Virus genome (UHGV): UHGV-0113213
Source of the DNA: a virus
DNA: 52,407 nucleotides
Direction: 5' to 3' (one strand)
In this document: in pieces, positions 21,474 to 39,995 of the stretch
Layout of the letters: each line of letters starts with the position of its first letter
Position numbering within the stretch: the stretch's first letter is position 1
Notes under the pieces: generated by a model
Seen by the model: the letters and a program-made list of their open reading frames with translations, nothing else
What the model was told of the DNA's origin: nothing
Database searches by the model: none
Position numbers and translations under genes: made by a program

Positions 21474-22988
21474 TTAAAATCCGCGCAGGCGCTTAGGTAA
21501 CATAAGGCCCATTGCCTGTGGCTGGCTTAATTCAGTGATACCCCACACCATAGCGTCGAGGCGGTCAGGTGATTTTTTAGCGGTAGCTGGCACGTATTCC
21601 ATCATTTGATTTTCCAGCGTGTACAGGCTGCCTGTGTGGGCCACCCTTCCTTGTGCATACAGTGCCGATATTGGCTCGGCGCGGGCGAATTTACCCTTGC
21701 TTGCGTGCACCTTAACAATGCGGCCTTTGAATCCGGCGTTACGTAGCGTGGCCTCTGCCATATCACCACCCTGGTTGGTTTCGATAACCATCGCGTCAGC
21801 TTCATGGATGTTGTAGGCGTTCATTGCTGCTTGCGCCCAGTCATTAGGTGACATGCGTCCTGAGTAGTCACCGTCTACTGAATACTGAGCATTCTTGCCA
21901 CCACCATAAGCGGAACAGGCTACAATCCCTGTTTCGTCTGACTCATCAGATGATGTTGTCGCCGGGTCGATGGCTATCACCGTGCGAATTTTCTCCTGCG
22001 TTATCTGCATCCTGTGCGCGGCGGTTATCATCGCTTCAGTCCACAATGCGCCCTCTTGATCGAACTTGCGCGGACACTGCATATATTGAGCTTCGAATGT
22101 TCGGCGATGTGATTTAAGAGTTGATTCATCTTTATCACTATGCTTATGCAACCATAGCCAGCCATCCGGCAGGTTGTGAGGAACAGGAATAGCAAATTTG
22201 TTTTCCGGGTACAGATCCCAATAGTCAAGACTGTTGTCGATCTTCACTGGCAGGCAAAGGTGATGCCATTTCTCACCACTACCGCCACGTAACAGGTAGC
22301 CGGATAAATCATCGTAGTGGATACGCTGCATGATGACGATCACTGGCGTTGTTTGCACAGCCAGGCGCGAAGAAAGCGTGTCGTTGTAATTGGTATTAAC
22401 CTGCTTTCGCACCACATCAGAATAAGCGTCAGCTGGTTTCAGGGGGTCATCAATAATCATTGCGCCGTTAAACCCAGGTTCCATGTACCCGGCGCGGAAC
22501 CCTGTCACCTGTCCAAGCGATGACGTCGCATACACGCCGCCACCCTGAGTGGTCCACCACAGGTTTTTCGCGTTCGAATCGTTGCGCATTTGCATAGGCC
22601 ACAATTCCTGATATTGCGGCATCGTGATTATGTTTCTTGTCTCTGAGGAATTAAGCAAGGCGAGTCCGTGTGAATACGATACATGCAGGAATCTGGTGCG
22701 GGGTTCTATTGCGAGGCAGCGGGCCATCATGTGAATTGTGGCAATCATTGTTTTGCCATAGCCCGGTGGGATGTTGATTATCAACCTGGTGATTTCACCA
22801 TTAATAACTCGTTGTAGCGTATCGGCAATTATTCTGTGATGACGCCCAACCAAAAAGTCCTTGCCAACCTGTTGCTTATAAAAGTAGGAACTAAAAAACA
22901 AAGGTGCTGATATGTCTTTGGGGGCACAACCTTTAACACACAACCCCCTTAGAACCTCTCTGTCAATCTTTGTCGTCGCAGTCTCCAT
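21474..22988 (-). CDS. terL: terminase large subunit
   Basis: 504 aa. Walker A-like IPPGYGKT, a DD(P) Walker B region and a C-terminal nuclease-like half. Confidence 0.9.
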   Translation of the reverse strand: METATTKIDREVLRGLCVKGCAPKDISAPLFFSSYFYKQQVGKDFLVGRHHRIIADTLQRVINGEITRLIINIPPGYGKTMIATIHMMARCLAIEPRTRFLHVSYSHGLALLNSSETRNIITMPQYQELWPMQMRNDSNAKNLWWTTQGGGVYATSSLGQVTGFRAGYMEPGFNGAMIIDDPLKPADAYSDVVRKQVNTNYNDTLSSRLAVQTTPVIVIMQRIHYDDLSGYLLRGGSGEKWHHLCLPVKIDNSLDYWDLYPENKFAIPVPHNLPDGWLWLHKHSDKDESTLKSHRRTFEAQYMQCPRKFDQEGALWTEAMITAAHRMQITQEKIRTVIAIDPATTSSDESDETGIVACSAYGGGKNAQYSVDGDYSGRMSPNDWAQAAMNAYNIHEADAMVIETNQGGDMAEATLRNAGFKGRIVKVHASKGKFARAEPISALYAQGRVAHTGSLYTLENQMMEYVPATAKKSPDRLDAMVWGITELSQPQAMGLMLPKRLRGF

Positions 22989-23478
22989 GAGTATTGTACT
23001 CCTTATTCAGGTTATCGATTATCTCAAGGACAGTAGTCTGATTTACTTCTACCTGGACGGGCGCTTCTTCCCTGTTACCTACGATCTCCTGCGTGACGCG
23101 CTCACCATATTTACGCGGTTGCAGTTTTGCCAGTAACCATTTACGAGTTTCAATCATCAGTTGATGGCGGCGGCATTGGTCTTTATCGGTGTTCTCCGCT
23201 GCGTCTGCTATGTCGATAATCTCATCAGCCAATATCTCAAAACCGATCTCCTTCGCGCGCATGTACATGTCCGAGAACTCCGGCACGTCTCTGAACCATT
23301 TAAGGATTGTTGAACGCGCAGGCATATCAGGCATCTTCGAAATTTTGTTAATACTCTGACCGTCCGCCACCAGCTCACAGATTTCTAATGCCTTTTCTTC
23401 GGTATAACCATGCGGACGGCCCGTCTTTTTGGCTGCTGGCTTTTTATCGTCAGCATTTGCCTTTTTAGTGCGGGCCAT
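22963..23478 (-). CDS. terS: terminase small subunit
   Basis: 171 aa. Basic N-terminus, HTH (SINKISKMPDMPARSTILKWF), RKWLLAKL..RKYGE motif. Overlaps the TerL start. Confidence 0.8.
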   Translation of the reverse strand: MARTKKANADDKKPAAKKTGRPHGYTEEKALEICELVADGQSINKISKMPDMPARSTILKWFRDVPEFSDMYMRAKEIGFEILADEIIDIADAAENTDKDQCRRHQLMIETRKWLLAKLQPRKYGERVTQEIVGNREEAPVQVEVNQTTVLEIIDNLNKEYNTHGDCDDKD

Positions 23479-23488
23479 AATTCACCTC

Positions 23489-23632
23489 TTAATCATCTTT
23501 ACCAAATCTTAATTTAAATTCATTCATCATCTTTTCTACTTCCTGTTCGGAAAGATAGATGGTTTCATTATTTTCTGCTGAATCAAGTGCCTTTCTTATT
23601 TCATCTGCTATTTTTAGTTCTTCATCGTTCAT
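23489..23632 (-). CDS. hypothetical acidic small protein
   Basis: 47 aa from the ATG at 23632 (GAGGTG SD): MNDEELKIADEIRKALDSAENNETIYLSEQEVEKMMNEFKLRFGKDD. Confidence 0.55.
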   Translation of the reverse strand: MNDEELKIADEIRKALDSAENNETIYLSEQEVEKMMNEFKLRFGKDD

Positions 23633-23643
23633 ATCGTCACCTC

Positions 23644-23727
23644 TTAATATTTGTTGATGATATATACGCAAGCCACAAAACTTGCGCAATATGTTAATAC
23701 TTCCAACCAGTCGAATAGCTCTTTCAT
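23644..23727 (-). CDS. hydrophobic micropeptide, array member 11 of 11 (27 aa)
   Basis: MKELFDWLEVLTYCASFVACVYIINKY. ATGA overlap with member 10. Confidence 0.55.
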   Translation of the reverse strand: MKELFDWLEVLTYCASFVACVYIINKY

Positions 23728-23867
23728 TGTTGCCCCTTGAATATATGCTTCGCTTCTCTGTAAATTAGCGCACCAGTCATTACAATCGCGTATACGCATA
23801 ACATTAACGCGACGATAAGCACGCCAGAACAAAGCAAAAACATCAGTAGATCGATAAATTCAAACAT
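23724..23867 (-). CDS. hydrophobic micropeptide, array member 10 (47 aa)
   Basis: MFEFIDLLMFLLCSGVLIVALMLCVYAIVMTGALIYREAKHIFKGQQ. GGTGAG lies 8 nt upstream. Confidence 0.6.
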   Translation of the reverse strand: MFEFIDLLMFLLCSGVLIVALMLCVYAIVMTGALIYREAKHIFKGQQ

Positions 23868-23875
23868 AATATTTC

Positions 23876-23944
23876 TCACCAGGAGAAAACAATAACAACC
23901 AACAGTGCGCTTATAGCTATAATTAAGAAATCACTATCAGACAT
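23876..23944 (-). CDS. hydrophobic micropeptide, array member 9 (22 aa)
   Basis: MSDSDFLIIAISALLVVIVFSW. The start lies inside the end of member 8. Confidence 0.5.
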   Translation of the reverse strand: MSDSDFLIIAISALLVVIVFSW

Positions 23945-24011
23945 TGATAATTACCAAGATAATAAATAACGCAACTGTACACACGATCAACATAATATCA
24001 ATAGCGTTCAT
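23937..24011 (-). CDS. hydrophobic micropeptide, array member 8 (24 aa)
   Basis: MNAIDIMLIVCTVALFIILVIINV. GGTGAG SD. Confidence 0.55.
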   Translation of the reverse strand: MNAIDIMLIVCTVALFIILVIINV

Positions 24012-24019
24012 TCGCTCAC

Positions 24020-24088
24020 CTACTGAGTCAGTGCTGTCATGGTAAGAACAATCGCGACAATCAGGAAAAAGAAATCAAGCCATTTCAT
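24020..24088 (-). CDS. hydrophobic micropeptide, array member 7 (22 aa)
   Basis: MKWLDFFFLIVAIVLTMTALTQ. AGGAG SD 6 nt upstream. Confidence 0.6.
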   Translation of the reverse strand: MKWLDFFFLIVAIVLTMTALTQ

Positions 24089-24103
24089 TTTAACTCCTGA
24101 GAT

Positions 24104-24175
24104 TCAGTTAACACTTAAAAGCACCGCAACGATGACAATCACTATAATCATGCAAAAGAAGTCTGCTTCTCTCAT
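24104..24175 (-). CDS. hydrophobic micropeptide, array member 6 (23 aa)
   Basis: MREADFFCMIIVIVIVAVLLSVN. ATGA overlap with member 5. Confidence 0.55.
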   Translation of the reverse strand: MREADFFCMIIVIVIVAVLLSVN

Positions 24176-24252
24176 CTTTTTAGCCCTCGATAAAAATCAA
24201 CAGCAATGACTACAACTACAGCCACCAGCAATAGCATTTCGTATGCGTTCAT
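24172..24252 (-). CDS. hydrophobic micropeptide, array member 5 (26 aa)
   Basis: MNAYEMLLLVAVVVVIAVDFYRGLKR. ATGA overlap with member 4. Confidence 0.55.
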   Translation of the reverse strand: MNAYEMLLLVAVVVVIAVDFYRGLKR

Positions 24253-24347
24253 TTGATGCTACCCATAACAAGGCCGATGATAATAATTATGGCGACAATG
24301 CCTAACATCATTCCGAACATAATCGCCATCAGTTCGAATATATCCAT
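24249..24347 (-). CDS. hydrophobic micropeptide, array member 4 (32 aa)
   Basis: MDIFELMAIMFGMMLGIVAIIIIIGLVMGSIK. 3-nt gap after member 3. Confidence 0.55.
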   Translation of the reverse strand: MDIFELMAIMFGMMLGIVAIIIIIGLVMGSIK

Positions 24348-24350
24348 GCT

Positions 24351-24425
24351 TCAGCTTTCAATGAATATCATGATCGCCAGCCATACGGCGACGCATAAGG
24401 AAAGGATGATTAGCGGGTCAATCAT
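24351..24425 (-). CDS. hydrophobic micropeptide, array member 3 (24 aa)
   Basis: MIDPLIILSLCVAVWLAIMIFIES. GGTGGGGTGA SD. Confidence 0.55.
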   Translation of the reverse strand: MIDPLIILSLCVAVWLAIMIFIES

Positions 24426-24429
24426 ATTT

Positions 24430-24540
24430 TCACCCCACCAAATACTTGATATATACGTTTATCAGCGCAACTATAATAGAACCAGCAAGAAACACAGAAA
24501 CGCCGATTAATACGGCAATGATGTAAGCGGCCATAATCAT
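24430..24540 (-). CDS. hydrophobic micropeptide, array member 2 (36 aa)
   Basis: MIMAAYIIAVLIGVSVFLAGSIIVALINVYIKYLVG. TAATG overlap with member 1. Confidence 0.55.
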   Translation of the reverse strand: MIMAAYIIAVLIGVSVFLAGSIIVALINVYIKYLVG

Positions 24541-24602
24541 TACTTCCACAACAAAAACAATATTACAGCCGCCGCCATTCCGATAAATAAATAAGCGTCC
24601 AT
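24540..24602 (-). CDS. hydrophobic micropeptide, array member 1 (20 aa)
   Basis: MDAYLFIGMAAAVILFLLWK. The ATG lies 2 nt after the stop of the HExxH gene. Confidence 0.5.
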   Translation of the reverse strand: MDAYLFIGMAAAVILFLLWK

Positions 24603-24604
24603 AA

Positions 24605-25189
24605 TCAGCCTCGTTTAAAGCTCATTACACGCGGTACAAGCGCCTCTTTTGCTTTAGGCTTACGTTTGCCTTTCTTGGCTGGTTTTTTCTCTTCTTTCGG
24701 CTCCTCTGCCTGCTCTACTGCCTGTTCTGCTGCATCAGTCGCCTTTTCCGCCTGCTCCAATGCCTGCTCAACGACTTCAGCGGCCTGCATAGCTGCCAAC
24801 TGTGCTTCGTTAGATTCAGCCAGGATCGGGAAGAATGCATCAAAGATGCGGCCCACCATGTAAGCATATGTCTCGTTTGCCGGATGGCTTGGTTCTGTAG
24901 TCGCTACGACACCGACATCACTTAAAACGTGGAATGTAGTGTGAGCCGCTTCATGTACCAGCGTACCAAGCTCATTATCGAATACTGCGATCACGTAGAA
25001 GTTACCGCCTTTCTCGCCAGTGCAAGTAAGTGTTAAACCTCCTGCCAGTTCAAAATCAGGTTCGATTGGGATCCCTGCCTTTTCGCAAAATTCATAGAAC
25101 ATGTCACGAGTCGGGCAGAAGAAAACTGTTGTATGCTCGAAGAGCGGGACTTTGAATTGAGGCAACTTAATGCCTTTACCCTTAGCCAT
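24605..25189 (-). CDS. HExxH-motif protein (putative zinc metallopeptidase) with an acidic coiled and Lys-rich tail
   Basis: 194 aa. GTLVHEAAHTTFHV contains HEAAH plus a downstream His. The C-terminus runs AEQAVEQAEEPKEEKKPAKKGKRKPKAKE. Confidence 0.5.
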   Translation of the reverse strand: MAKGKGIKLPQFKVPLFEHTTVFFCPTRDMFYEFCEKAGIPIEPDFELAGGLTLTCTGEKGGNFYVIAVFDNELGTLVHEAAHTTFHVLSDVGVVATTEPSHPANETYAYMVGRIFDAFFPILAESNEAQLAAMQAAEVVEQALEQAEKATDAAEQAVEQAEEPKEEKKPAKKGKRKPKAKEALVPRVMSFKRG

Positions 25190-25526
25190 CAGAATATTCC
25201 TCTATCCTGAAAAATATAACCCCCGCAAAACTGGACACCGCAGGGAGTGAAAACAGATATAAAACACTGAAAACGGCGCTTAGTGAGTACCGTTTGCAGA
25301 ATTTTATAAAACTGGACCTGCTTAACATCTCTGATAAACAGATCCGGGCGCTCGTCCTACGCGTGGCAGGTGAGTAAATGGCGCTTTCTTCTACCCAGGT
25401 AGCGCCGTACCTGTTAATGAGGTTGTTTACCCGGTATTACGTGTTTTTGAATTTCCGCCGTCGCTCGCGGGAAGGATTGACCCGGTTATGGCTGGCTGGC
25501 AGAAACGGCGACACGTCCACGAGCTG

Positions 25527-26015
25527 TTATTCTTTACGCAAGCACTGCGTTTTGATGTAGTCCTGTAGGCCAGTGATCTGTGCGTCTTTTATTTTTAGTT
25601 GTTCTCTGAGGGATAGATAAGCCGATTTAGCGTCGGCAGTAGGTTCGCAGGTGGCTCCATCAATGCGGCTGGAGGTTCCGGTATTACTGTCTGTTCGCAT
25701 TGGCACGGCGTTGACGCGCAACCGGATAGTACCGTTATCAATGCCAGTGCGCAGATCGGCAATGTCAGATCTGATAGCTTTAATCTCATCGTGATACCTC
25801 TTATCAAGTTTTGACAGTTCGGCGTTTCGCTCCTTCATCTGCTGAATAGTGTTACTTGCTGTCTTCAGTGCGCCTTTCGTCACCGTGACTTCTTCCTGTA
25901 ACCTTGTCGCCTCACCCTGGTAATAACACGTTACGGCGGTTAGTCCGGCAATAATGCAAACAACAGCGGCGATAATTAACGCCTTCACCTTGTCCACGTT
26001 TCCCCCCATTCGCAA
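25527..26015 (-). CDS. Rz: i-spanin (Rz-like)
   Basis: 162 aa. N-terminal TM ([17 protein letters not shown]), coiled-coil periplasmic domain. Overlaps the endolysin end. Confidence 0.8.
25595..25789 (-). CDS. Rz1: o-spanin (Rz1-like), embedded in the Rz frame
   Basis: 64 aa from the internal Met: [23 protein letters not shown]|C lipobox, Pro-rich mature part. Fully nested in a different frame of the i-spanin gene. Confidence 0.75.
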   Translation of the reverse strand: MRLKLSDLTLPICALALITVLSGCASTPCQCEQTVIPEPPAALMEPPANLLPTLNRLIYPSENN

Positions 26016-39490: not shown

Positions 39491-39753
39491 ACGCCGTACA
39501 TCCCATTCAGCCCGGCAAACAATTTCCGCCAGTGGTCTTCAACATAATCCCGGAACGGCTTAACGCGAACATTGCGGGCCTTCAGTTCAATCTTGTCAAA
39601 GAAACGAGGCTCAATAATCGTTCCATCCAGATATTTAACCAGGATCGGGCGCTCAAGATCGTTATATGTCTTGTTCAGCACAACCAGACCAGGGTCGCTA
39701 CGATATTCTGGCAAAACAACAAGATCGCCATCTTTTGCATTCCAAGTAACCAT
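39481..39753 (-). CDS. hypothetical protein
   Basis: 90 aa from the ATG at 39753 (the track uses the GTG at 39756). Confidence 0.5.
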   Translation of the reverse strand: MVTWNAKDGDLVVLPEYRSDPGLVVLNKTYNDLERPILVKYLDGTIIEPRFFDKIELKARNVRVKPFRDYVEDHWRKLFAGLNGMYGVWL

Positions 39754-39872
39754 CACATCGCCCCTTTACAAATAAAGCTAATCACCGCAGCAAGTGCGCC
39801 GCAAAACACAATCGTAAACAGGAAACAAATAACGCAAAAAGCGACCCTTACAATATTCTTGCAAACCTTCAT
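39753..39872 (-). CDS. hydrophobic Cys-rich micropeptide (39 aa)
   Basis: MKVCKNIVRVAFCVICFLFTIVFCGALAAVISFICKGAM. GGGGTGAG SD. The stop overlaps the next ATG. Confidence 0.5.
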   Translation of the reverse strand: MKVCKNIVRVAFCVICFLFTIVFCGALAAVISFICKGAM

Positions 39873-39875
39873 AAC

Positions 39876-39995
39876 TCACCCCAACAATGCAACAATTAAT
39901 TCAGCAATAAAAACGGCGACATAAAAAGAAGCTGTGATATAAATCACCCCAATAACGAAGGCGGCGGCTAATGCCGCAATTTTTACCATGCTCAT
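39876..39995 (-). CDS. hydrophobic micropeptide (39 aa)
   Basis: MSMVKIAALAAAFVIGVIYITASFYVAVFIAELIVALLG. ATGA overlap with the upstream gene. Confidence 0.5.
   Translation of the reverse strand: MSMVKIAALAAAFVIGVIYITASFYVAVFIAELIVALLG

Follow-up and report, generated by a model that had tools for sequence, protein, structure and literature searches.

Bacteria make membrane proteins so small that annotation pipelines miss them. Those of the AcrZ, MgrB and MgtS class, like the hydrophobic intergenic small open reading frames (ORFs) of Enterobacteriaceae grouped as 'Entero67K' microprotein clusters (PMC11188072; for a review, see PMC12648545), have fewer than 50 amino acids and a single hydrophobic helix. 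They can be detected by purifying selection and by Shine-Dalgarno (SD) sites, and they are presumed to bind larger membrane proteins. Their genes are scattered singly and often have their own regulation.

Phages make small membrane proteins as well, and to our knowledge almost all late-expressed ones of known role regulate lysis. Holins usually have 60-150 amino acids and a charged C-terminal domain, lie beside the endolysin gene and number one to three per phage. Multi-component sets of small membrane holins and antiholins stand beside the lysis genes of P2 (lysA/B), P1 (lydB), Mu (gp19-25), Ms6 (gp4/gp5) and SPP1. In the systems of P2, P1, Mu and Ms6, as in lambda S105/S107, small late proteins made near the endolysin act helix against helix in the inner membrane.

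Three other kinds of gene invite comparison. The toxins of tandem type I systems (ibs/sib, ldr/rdl and hok/sok) and of prophage type I pairs are very small hydrophobic peptides, sometimes encoded in tandem; each unit has its own promoter, a long 5' untranslated region and an antisense RNA, and the copies are obvious DNA repeats. The staphylococcal psm-alpha1-4 genes and those for aureocin A70 stand back to back in one operon and encode leaderless peptides of 20-35 amino acids; such peptides, amphipathic and as a rule cationic, leave the cell through dedicated ABC exporters. A moron is a self-contained unit of promoter, gene and terminator that is usually expressed in the lysogen. Lambda bor, in the Rz-cos region, is the precedent for a moron in a hot-spot between lysis and packaging genes.

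Here we analyse a phage locus that shares features with all of these. The window is a stretch of 52,407 nucleotides, UHGV virus genome UHGV-0113213, and its phage belongs with the temperate coliphages of the mEp021/mEpimmI group. Like the AcrZ class, the ORFs of the locus encode fewer than 50 amino acids with a single hydrophobic helix; in contrast to that class, 11 units are chained head to tail and reshuffled as cassettes among relatives. Their products are hydrophobic throughout and have heads that are acidic or neutral, which sets them apart by description from the psm-alpha and leaderless bacteriocin peptides, homology having been sought through Pfam and NCBIfam. No exporter or immunity gene lies next to the array; the neighbours are only gp49, TerS, TerL and the lysis genes. 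Standard annotation leaves about 1 kb empty at this point in a common group of gut coliphages, despite up to a dozen genes under selection.

Layout of the array and architecture of its products

Eleven ATG-started ORFs of 20-47 amino acids, found both in an ORF listing with a minimum of 20 amino acids and in an independent ORF census, fill 96% of positions 23644-24602 on the minus strand (Table 1). The initial annotation had translated eleven peptides from this stretch by hand, and their sequences, lengths and coordinates were all reproduced. So was its scheme of junctions: one TAATG overlap (A/B), three ATGA overlaps (E/F, F/G and L/M), one start inside the preceding ORF (I/J, an 8-nt overlap) and gaps of 3-15 nt elsewhere, for an overall spacing of -8 to +15 nt. 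Successive units make use of all three reading frames. Only for the second peptide did we have to amend the reading. The 36-amino-acid ORF is there, but its first ATG is probably not the start: relatives read 'MDAY...' at the second ATG (24534), so the likely product is the 34-amino-acid 'MAAY...'.

The array had been placed between the lysis and packaging modules, and it does lie there, within one co-oriented and tightly coupled chain that runs from the lysis cassette with gp49 to TerS. The chain is longer than had been stated. On one side, the gene for a gp49-like protein with an invariant HEAAH motif (HExxH type) stops 2 nt ahead of the ATG of micro-ORF A. On the other, micro-ORF M is followed by an 11-nt gap, a soluble 47-amino-acid ORF (23632-23489, here cassette N), a 10-nt gap and then TerS. 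The phage's class II holin (PF16080; 66 amino acids) is encoded directly upstream of the lysozyme, and the array is not beside the endolysin: it comes after Rz, a spacer of about 340 nt and gp49.

Table 1. Positions, products and conservation of the array units and flanking genes (KD15, best 15-residue Kyte-Doolittle window).
Feature	Position	Strand	Product	Remarks	Occurrence among 51 loci	dN/dS
gp49-like	24605..25189	-	194 aa, soluble	mEp021 gp49 homologue; upstream neighbour, outside array		
Micro-ORF A	24540..24602	-	20 aa, MDAYLFIGMAAAVILFLLWK	accessory family, several length variants; GAGG SD 7 nt upstream; KD15 2.67	family in 35/51	
Micro-ORF B	24430..24540	-	36 aa from first ATG	conserved start probably ATG 24534 (34 aa)	family in 44/51	
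Micro-ORF C	24351..24425	-	24 aa, MIDPLIILSLCVAVWLAIMIFIES	core family; GGGGTGA SD	present in 49/51; intact in 48/48 where found	0.23
Micro-ORF E	24249..24347	-	32 aa, MDIFELMAIMFGMMLGIVAIIIIIGLVMGSIK	accessory; GxxxG motifs	found in 24; same stop in 18/24	0.14
Micro-ORF F	24172..24252	-	26 aa, MNAYEMLLLVAVVVVIAVDFYRGLKR	core family; basic tail; ATGA overlap with E	intact in 47/47	0.22
Micro-ORF G	24104..24175	-	23 aa, MREADFFCMIIVIVIVAVLLSVN	accessory; ATGA overlap with F; 87-nt whole-unit indel in relatives	intact in 18/18	0.22
Micro-ORF H	24020..24088	-	22 aa, MKWLDFFFLIVAIVLTMTALTQ	core family; AGGAG SD	intact in 47/48	0.10
Micro-ORF I	23937..24011	-	24 aa, MNAIDIMLIVCTVALFIILVIINV	accessory, linked to J; AGGTGA SD	start and stop kept in 26/26	0.29
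Micro-ORF J	23876..23944	-	22 aa, MSDSDFLIIAISALLVVIVFSW	start 8 nt inside I		0.36
Micro-ORF L	23724..23867	-	47 aa, MFEFIDLL...YREAKHIFKGQQ	rare accessory; long hydrophobic stretch, basic tail; 138-nt whole-unit indel	intact in 11/11	0.16
Micro-ORF M	23644..23727	-	27 aa, MKELFDWLEVLTYCASFVACVYIINKY	universal family; ATGA overlap with L; least hydrophobic of array	present in 51/51	0.05
Cassette N	23489..23632	-	47 aa, soluble, acidic (MNDEELK...)	WP_185737921.1; part of same variable chain; 155-nt whole-unit indel	found in 9	0.31
TerS	22963..23478	-	small terminase subunit (Sf6-type)	Pfam PF20901, E=1.5e-37; downstream anchor, 10 nt after N		

Every one of the 11 array ORFs encodes a single strongly hydrophobic segment. 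The KD15 score is at least 2.18 in all 11 peptides and at least 2.67 in 10 (range 2.18-3.61). Across the whole 52-kb window there are 13 ORFs of up to 60 amino acids with a KD15 of at least 2.5, and the array holds 10 of them. The common plan first described, a single hydrophobic helix behind a mostly acidic head and sometimes before a basic tail, holds up, with heads that are acidic or neutral and tails that are often basic. In the 15 membrane families of related phages, uncharged stretches span 13-30 residues, the net charge of the N-terminal flank is zero or negative in 15 of 15, and 13 of the 15 have a C-terminal flank of zero or positive net charge. Short basic tails occur only in L (YREAKHIFKGQQ) and F (YRGLKR). 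In families C, G, H, I, J and K the peptide stops inside the helix or directly behind it, and for want of a basic C-terminal flank its orientation cannot really be predicted. On a Hessa-type scale, F, D and M come out as only marginally hydrophobic. These properties make it very probable that the products insert as single-pass peptides in the inner membrane. They resemble recognized small membrane proteins in having an ORF of at most 50 codons under purifying selection, a ribosome-binding site and one membrane helix, from which we infer translation.

Evidence that the micro-ORFs are genes

Short hydrophobic ORFs may arise by chance in T-rich DNA, and several controls exclude that explanation here. 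Among 2000 dinucleotide-preserving shuffles of the 959 nt, the mean number of hydrophobic ATG-started ORFs of at least 20 amino acids is 1.1 (sd 0.96, maximum 5), compared with the 11 observed, and the highest ORF coverage is 0.69, compared with 96%. The antisense strand of the same stretch has none. Nor does a run of three or more such ORFs appear at 74 loci of other phages with a distantly related (Sf6-type) TerS.

Relatives provide a further test. Had the claim of genuine genes been wrong, frameshifts and stops with no conservation of frame might be expected in homologous regions; in 51 related loci, the same start and stop are kept in nearly every locus where a family occurs. Per-family dN/dS lies between 0.05 and 0.36, and that of the flanking genes between 0.06 and 0.08. 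Pooled over families, the sense frame gives 0.18 with 0 stops, and the other five frames, our wrong-frame controls, give 0.31-1.70 with 96-547 stops. Variable sites fall at codon positions 1, 2 and 3 in the numbers 72, 45 and 140, an excess at the third position (p=8e-18). Replacements within the hydrophobic cores exchange one hydrophobic residue for another in 70 of 85 cases, and conservation is specific to each family, extending to invariant head motifs and to Cys and Gly positions. SD-like motifs stand ahead of 136 of the 150 distinct starts (91%), as against 83 of 293 control ATGs, and of 118 distinct junctions 100 either overlap or leave a gap of at most 20 nt. The array ORFs are almost certainly real coding micro-genes, a judgement that takes their translation from the conservation and the SD motifs.

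Three other interpretations of the stretch were considered and rejected. PGAP annotates a 129-amino-acid coding sequence on the plus strand across the array in E. coli LSU61, which we judge spurious: antisense ORFs across the array range from 38 to 129 amino acids without fixed ends, and the antisense frames carry many stops across haplotypes. A broken gene for a polytopic membrane protein does not fit, as the concatenated 303-amino-acid product has no Pfam match and the units occupy all three frames. An RNA element or repeat array can also be set aside. Rfam gives no family at its gathering score anywhere in the window, TRF finds no tandem repeats, and the direct repeats in the array are short and at chance level, those in the heads of A and B excepted.

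Variation of the array among related phages

The 51 loci contain about 15 membrane families and one soluble family, combined in 39 array configurations of 3-12 units per phage whose order is always constant. Families C, F, H and M form a near-universal core; about eleven further membrane families are optional, and most units are missing from some phage in the set. Arrays differ by whole-unit insertions or deletions of 87, 91, 138 and 155 nt that leave no fragments behind. I and J travel together (both in 33 loci, I alone in 4, J alone in 0, neither in 12; p=2e-8). The peptide of M is identical even between loci whose gp49 proteins are only 59-64% identical, and the mEp021 variant of M is 44% identical.

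HNH endonucleases and the soluble cassette N insert at the array locus too, which makes it a plasticity zone. GC content is 35-40% in the array and 46-53% in its flanks. Presence or absence between collinear relatives and deviant base composition, both seen here, are the marks by which morons are recognized. Plaque-forming isolates also differ in their units (mEp021, mEp010, mEp013, mEp044, mEp554 and MagusPhagus). The array is thus a compact natural test bed for small membrane proteins, in which the gain or loss of single genes of 22-47 amino acids could be linked to phenotypes such as host range, the timing of lysis or the ability to withstand defence systems. Roughly 35 complete E. coli genomes have the prophage.

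The variation is confined to a narrow group. In tblastn searches of 50,697 phage records, matches to L and M are confined to phages of the mEpimmI group, and MagusPhagus is the only match to L. Even the most distant gp49 homologues, at 59-64% identity, come from phages of this group and have the array beside them; a search of genome contigs with gp49 returned no match. Among 5.8 billion non-redundant proteins, micro-ORF L accounts for just 11 clusters, and all those with a named source are from E. coli. By exact-sequence lookup in a collection of 15 billion proteins, 9 of 10 window peptides are absent, micro-ORF E being the sole one present. On the comparison of the 51 loci and these searches, the array is an accessory region specific to the mEp021/mEpimmI lineage and variable cassette by cassette.

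Public annotation almost entirely omits the array, and of the units here PGAP annotates only cassette N. The initial annotation knew of no described system with this layout, and our searches agree. No array peptide has a family in Pfam, PHROGs, NCBIfam or PADLOC; hits in Pfam and NCBIfam at E values up to 1-10 are noise only, with no relation to any named small protein. The best PHROG match of micro-ORF L is a weak and non-significant one to a holin (phrog_920, E=0.18), and the other peptides have none. The mEpimmI genome paper does not mention the array ORFs (PMC11893012), and the open-access literature text yielded no analogue of tandem small membrane proteins in phages. Two of our observations go beyond that first description: the cassette-wise hypervariability around a four-member core, and the confinement to one phage lineage.

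Candidate functions and origin

In our preferred reading, to which we assign a probability of roughly 45%, the chained membrane micro-genes encode swappable helices that bind membrane proteins. The micro-genes would be read from the late transcript, each start being reached through its SD site or by termination-reinitiation at the ATGA and TAATG overlaps, which would make one coupled translation unit of gp49, the peptides, the soluble 47-amino-acid protein and terminase. Late co-expression is likely, to judge from position and orientation. Once the peptides have inserted, the N-terminus, acidic or neutral, would lie on the outside and the often basic C-terminus on the inside, and each helix would pack against a specific membrane protein late in infection. 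That the peptides modulate membrane proteins by binding their helices is, in our estimation, an even bet.

The choice of target is more tentative. Because array content varies freely on an invariant lysis cassette, we favour host inner-membrane proteins, such as membrane-acting abortive-infection or defence effectors, or the channels of superinfecting phages; the array would then be a swappable repertoire and no part of the lysis clock. We would still put host targets at somewhat worse than even odds against phage ones. Known anti-defence proteins are mostly soluble, which counts against host-defence targets, and an invariant phage partner, the conserved holin for instance, would explain the low dN/dS as well as a host partner would. 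If host membrane defence effectors or the holin are indeed targets, the peptides would represent a new class of very small phage effectors.

The main rival ties the array to lysis. Antiholin-like or holin-cofactor-like helices would pack on the class II holin, or on the membrane anchors of spanin or endolysin, and govern when or how sharply the holin triggers, with array content as a rheostat for lysis time. Since almost all late small phage membrane proteins of known role regulate lysis, this explanation is favoured a priori, and like those proteins the array lies near the endolysin and would act helix on helix in the inner membrane. Holin-lysozyme-Rz lies about 1 kb upstream of the array on the same strand, and one late transcript probably covers both; a conserved partner would account for the low dN/dS of the peptides; and the holin match of L, weak as it is, points the same way. 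The variation tells against it. The holin is nearly invariant (dN/dS 0.06), yet 12 array configurations are found among the 13 loci whose holin is identical, from two families (a B variant and M) up to twelve, so tuning specific to the holin allele loses ground. The array is also parted from the lysis genes by the spacer, which contains a predicted terminator in mEp021, and by gp49, in mEp013 by an HNH gene as well. The units are far more numerous and much smaller than holins and separate from the phage's own PF16080 holin, and most lack the charged C-terminal domain typical of holins. On this evidence we consider a lysis-timing role unlikely. Mimicry of the holin was rejected: the peptides show no similarity to the membrane segments of holin or Rz (holin z at most 2).

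A bolder form of the preferred reading takes the array as a combinatorial library of transmembrane helices, the membrane counterpart of anti-defence islands, in which each cassette of 20-30 residues neutralizes one effector or channel of the host inner membrane, be it the pore-former of an abortive-infection system or the entry route of rival phages. The chain would at the same time be a nursery where new micro-genes, arising as local duplicates or de novo out of T-rich DNA, are expressed at once. We regard this joint proposal as a long shot.

The peptides might instead be generic membrane-damaging toxins of the type I, Ibs or Hok kind that depolarize or permeabilize the inner membrane for host shut-off or holin triggering, with copy number setting the dose. 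All 11 peptides have fewer than 60 amino acids and a single hydrophobic helix, as type I toxins do, and the size (20-26 amino acids) and extreme hydrophobicity recall the Ibs and ShoB classes; many units in a row and their variable number would suit a dose effect. Against this, Pfam and NCBIfam give no match to a type I toxin family, Rfam finds no antitoxin sRNA anywhere in the window, and gaps of at most 15 nt leave no room for an antisense promoter at each gene. Promoter-like sites number 4 in the array, one of them on the plus strand, as against 7.8 in shuffles, by a consensus scan that a novel antisense RNA could escape. With neither room nor signal for antisense RNAs and no family match, a type-I-toxin-like role loses ground. 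The units also differ from such toxins in being translationally coupled and free of DNA repeats, and most of the peptides have few or no basic residues. The family-specific conservation and the obligatory pairing of I with J suggest specific partners rather than bulk damage to the membrane. We find the toxin explanation improbable.

Slightly worse placed are morons made in the lysogen, for superinfection exclusion at the inner membrane or as a fitness factor. The array occupies the same niche as the lambda Rz-cos region, an accessory hot-spot between lysis and packaging genes, and has the presence/absence polymorphism and low GC of moron loci. mEpimmI phages carry exclusion genes elsewhere, namely Lpp and Rep (PMC11893012). 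We detected no promoter or terminator belonging to the array, no sigma-70-like promoter upstream of gp49 or the array and no flanking terminator, and a role in the lysogen is unsupported for that reason. Units chained to late genes by translational coupling are, moreover, the opposite of autonomous moron cassettes.

Already largely refuted, and now very improbable indeed, is the idea that the array has no function of its own and merely retains ribosomes (against Rho and polarity, or for TerS translation), is the wreck of a polytopic gene or is open T-rich filler: the chain does bring ribosomes to TerS, few of the units are required in every phage and T-rich, AT-rich sequence readily gives hydrophobic ORFs (PMC11188072), but purifying selection acts on amino acids in the sense frame only, with conservative replacements, exact starts and stops across 51 loci and indels without fragments, and the shuffles, the unmatched 303-amino-acid concatenate and the use of all three frames stand against chance or decay.

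The origin of the units bears on gene birth, for hydrophobic micro-genes have been duplicated here, and may also have arisen de novo, within a coupled operon. The initial annotation saw a tandemly amplified and diverged family. That description survives only within G/H/K, within D/F and in the heads of A and B; most families are not detectably related, and the array contains no tandem repeats at the nucleotide level. The array appears to have arisen in part by local duplication. Measured by composition-corrected similarity, micro-ORF G is a paralogue of H and K (z 6.2-7.9) and micro-ORF F of a D variant (z 7.7). The DNA encoding the heads of A and B is a 16-nt direct repeat, 94% identical.

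Coding potential of the micro-ORF chain

The 11 ATG-started minus-strand ORFs that the initial annotation had translated by hand at 23644-24602 were recovered exactly by an ORF listing and by an independent ORF census. They are lettered by family; families D and K are missing from the window. The junctions, too, are as first described: TAATG joins A to B, ATGA joins E to F, F to G and L to M, I shares its last 8 nt with J, and the other gaps measure 3-15 nt. The chain is longer than had been stated. The 194-aa ORF upstream, which encodes a soluble homologue of mEp021 gp49, stops 2 nt ahead of A; 3' of M, an 11-nt gap leads to the soluble cassette N and a further 10-nt gap to the small terminase gene (TerS). 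From 25189 to terminase the longest untranslated gap is at most 15 nt, and successive array units use all three reading frames.

Features of the chain in the window, with family occupancy among 51 homologous loci
Feature	Coordinates	Strand	Product	Loci (of 51)
gp49-like ORF upstream of A	24605-25189	-	194 aa	
Micro-ORF A	24602-24540	-	20 aa	35
Micro-ORF B	24540-24430	-	36 aa	44
Micro-ORF C	24425-24351	-	24 aa	49
Micro-ORF E	24347-24249	-	32 aa	24
Micro-ORF F	24252-24172	-	26 aa	48
Micro-ORF G	24175-24104	-	23 aa	21
Micro-ORF H	24088-24020	-	22 aa	49
Micro-ORF I	24011-23937	-	24 aa	38
Micro-ORF J	23944-23876	-	22 aa	38
Micro-ORF L	23867-23724	-	47 aa	11
Micro-ORF M	23727-23644	-	27 aa	51
Cassette N	23632-23489	-	47 aa, soluble, acidic	9
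TerS	22963-23478	-	PF20901, E=1.5e-37	

Could such a chain arise by chance? Together, the 11 hydrophobic ORFs take up 96% of the stretch of 959 nt. Dinucleotide-preserving shuffles (n = 2000) gave a mean of 1.1 such ORFs (ATG start, at least 20 aa, a score of at least 2.0 in a 15-residue Kyte-Doolittle window, KD15) and a maximum of 5, with coverage never above 0.69; the antisense strand of the same stretch has none by these criteria. At a KD15 of at least 2.5, the whole 52-kb window holds 13 ORFs of up to 60 aa, 10 of them inside the array. Runs of at least three adjacent hydrophobic micro-ORFs were found on neither strand in 74 loci of other phages encoding distantly related small terminases (33-44% identity); six mEp021-group loci fetched alongside them had runs of 3-11.

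The window falls in the mEp021/mEpimmI group, whose temperate coliphages are Nus-dependent and non-lambdoid. It matched the members MagusPhagus, mEp010, mEp013, mEp021, mEp044, mEp515 and mEp554, as well as 35 complete E. coli genomes, the closest being strain M15 (97.9%). The 51 homologous loci come from GenBank and RefSeq, from IMG/VR probed with the gp49-like protein, and from two further, more distant contigs, in which gp49 identity is down to 59-64%. Between gp49 stop and TerS start they span 318-1154 nt.

Among the loci that have a given family, start and stop are kept in every one for C (48/48), F (47/47), G (18/18), I (26/26) and L (11/11), and in nearly every one for H (47/48), D (33/34) and M (42/46). 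Frame conservation and synonymous bias bear out the proposed genes: for the pooled membrane families, sense-frame dN/dS is 0.18 and no haplotype carries a stop, against 0.31-1.70 and 96-547 stops in the other five frames. By family, dN/dS (Nei-Gojobori) is lowest for M (0.05) and highest for J (0.36); in the same phages, values for holin, gp49 N-domain and TerS are 0.06-0.08. Segregating sites fall 72/45/140 at codon positions 1/2/3 (chi-square p=8e-18). At strongly hydrophobic consensus positions, 70 of 85 replacements bring in a different hydrophobic residue and 2 a charged residue; conservation is highest in the N-terminal heads. Of 150 distinct starts, 136 have a Shine-Dalgarno-like tetramer 4-18 nt upstream; for the remaining ATGs of this DNA the figure is 83 of 293. 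Distinct junctions number 118, and 100 of them overlap or are no longer than 20 nt. On this comparative sequence evidence, we conclude that the array ORFs are genuine micro-genes in a coupled chain, each for a very hydrophobic peptide with a single helix.

These genes have largely escaped annotation. PGAP passes over all 11 hydrophobic ORFs and calls just the soluble N; in records based on PHANOTATE some units are called, frequently with incorrect boundaries. The paper on the mEp021/mEpimmI group (PMC11893012) does not mention the array ORFs, and no description of such an arrangement was found there or in searches of open-access literature. In E. coli O157:H7 LSU61, PGAP places a 129-aa 'hypothetical protein' (WP_171877280.1, L010 2189-2578 (+)) antisense to the array. 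This call looks spurious and appears to displace real genes: antisense ORFs in 49 loci measure anywhere between 38 and 129 aa, their ends are not conserved, and other haplotypes have stop-rich antisense frames.

Properties of the peptides

The plan noted at the outset, a short, mostly acidic head, one hydrophobic helix and sometimes a basic tail, is matched by charge and uncharged-stretch analysis. An uncharged stretch, 13-30 residues long, is present in every family but N. The N-terminal flank has zero or negative net charge in all 15 membrane families, with an acidic residue among the first six of the commonest variant in 13; the C-terminal flank is neutral or positive in 13 of 15. Basic tails are clear in A, B, D, E, F, L and M. 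Because of the positive-inside rule, these tailed peptides are predicted to be single-pass with N-out/C-in topology, like Pf3 coat protein; the rule predicts no orientation for C, G, H, I, J and K. GxxxG-type motifs occur in A, B, E and X, and conserved cysteines within the helix in C, G, I, L and M.

No peptide matched Pfam, PHROGs, NCBIfam or PADLOC, nor did a 303-aa concatenate. Exact look-up in a 15-billion-protein collection found E and none of the nine other window peptides searched; L lay outside that look-up, but a separate search returned a 47-aa protein identical to it. L forms only 11 clusters at 90% identity, and all those bearing a source name are E. coli. In tblastn against 50,697 phage records, L and M matched solely within the mEp021/mEpimmI group.

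Variation in cassette content

Family order is fixed (X/Y-A-B-C-D-E-F-G-H-I-J-K-L-M-N) and content is variable: the 51 loci have 39 configurations, with 3-12 membrane units per phage (median 9). Of families absent from the window's array, D occurs in 34 loci, K in 16, X in 9 and Y in 2. In pairwise alignments, arrays are separated by whole-unit indels (G 87 nt, D 91, L 138, N 155). As comparison of the loci shows, the coupled chain combines a small core with a large optional repertoire of micro-genes. I and J (23876-24011 (-)) are almost always gained or lost together (both in 33 loci, I only in 4, J only in 0, neither in 12; p=2e-8) and may form a two-peptide functional unit. M is near-universal, immediately precedes TerS and is the least hydrophobic; its role may be distinct.

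Is the array a tandemly amplified, diverged family, as initially proposed? Only in part. After correction for composition, G, H and K are significantly similar to one another (z 6.2-7.9), as are F and a D variant (z 7.7), and the A and B heads have a 16-nt repeat in common. The remaining families have no relationship detectable by this measure, and no tandem DNA repeats were found in the array. Local duplication thus explains some of the array, not all.

GC content is 35-40% within the array and 46-53% around it. In several relatives HNH endonuclease genes are inserted nearby: between gp49 and the array in mEp013 (L007 2258-2743), between lysozyme and Rz (L058 2752-3273), and between TerS and the large terminase gene, TerL (L059 5250-5753). 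Insertions at three places mark the lysis-packaging junction as a plasticity zone, a hot-spot for selfish insertions. TerS itself has two C-terminal versions in the window and its relatives: one of 171 aa, overlapping a 504-aa TerL, and one of 161 aa, 2 nt from a TerL with an annotated 1479-nt CDS. Exchange of the two versions among phages does not follow array content, a sign of mosaic recombination at the array's downstream edge.

Expression and possible function

Upstream of the array lie a 66-aa class II holin, lysozyme, Rz/Rz1, a spacer of ~340 nt and gp49. No long ORF is conserved in the spacer (25190-25527 (-), from Rz stop to gp49 start); in relatives, PHANOTATE predicts various ORFs of 30-43 aa there, and the homologous stretch of mEp021 carries an annotated rho-independent terminator. 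Signals that control the late operon may lie in this spacer. Consensus scans turned up neither a promoter nor a terminator that could convincingly be assigned to the array itself. Promoter-like sites are rarer than in shuffles, and Rfam gave no match. The simplest reading is that the array is co-transcribed with the late genes and translated by coupling.

What might the peptides do? We favor, at a probability of about 0.35, a repertoire of host-directed helix binders. The peptides would insert in the inner membrane late in infection and act by helix-helix binding to membrane proteins. Their targets would be variable host factors, for example defence or abortive-infection effectors that act on the membrane, or the routes by which competing phages enter. 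To our knowledge, nearly every small membrane protein that phages express late and whose function is known regulates lysis, which counts against this choice. Modulation of the lysis clock is the nearest competitor, though a rather doubtful one; an invariant holin partner would also explain the low dN/dS. However, an identical holin occurs in 13 phages with 12 different arrays, from two families (a B variant and M) to twelve, and the peptides are unrelated to holin membrane segments. Both observations argue against cassette-specific co-adaptation with the lysis machinery and fit better an accessory repertoire facing variable host factors. Nor do the peptides resemble holins: they lack a charged C-terminal domain and a profile match, and are not beside the endolysin.

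Generic depolarising toxins are unlikely, since family-specific conservation and I-J linkage favor specific partners over bulk membrane damage; unlike type I toxins, the array has no antisense RNA that we could find and no family match. Slightly less probable still are exclusion morons expressed in the lysogen; for these units, in contrast to classical morons, the scans detected no signals of their own. That the peptides lack any function of their own is very improbable, and the rest of the probability goes to something else.

In behaviour the units resemble small membrane proteins of bacteria and the conserved hydrophobic smORFs catalogued between genes in Enterobacteriaceae (PMC11188072, PMC12648545). 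The novelty lies in how they are organised. A phage late operon strings together as many as a dozen of these genes, drawn from some 15 membrane families; they are reshuffled as single units and restricted to one coliphage lineage. The array is a solid and experimentally tractable finding; the function of its peptides we only infer.

A second, smaller set lies in the early region, between a 91-aa ORF and the anti-RecBCD/ssb neighbourhood: two back-to-back, strongly hydrophobic 39-aa ORFs at 39753-39872 (-) and 39876-39995 (-), MKVCKNIVRVAFCVICFLF... and MSMVKIAALAAAFVIGVIY... Their mEp021 counterparts (43 and 37 aa) are diverged and intact, in an unannotated gap (L140 508-749). The pair indicates that the phage carries further unannotated membrane micro-genes.
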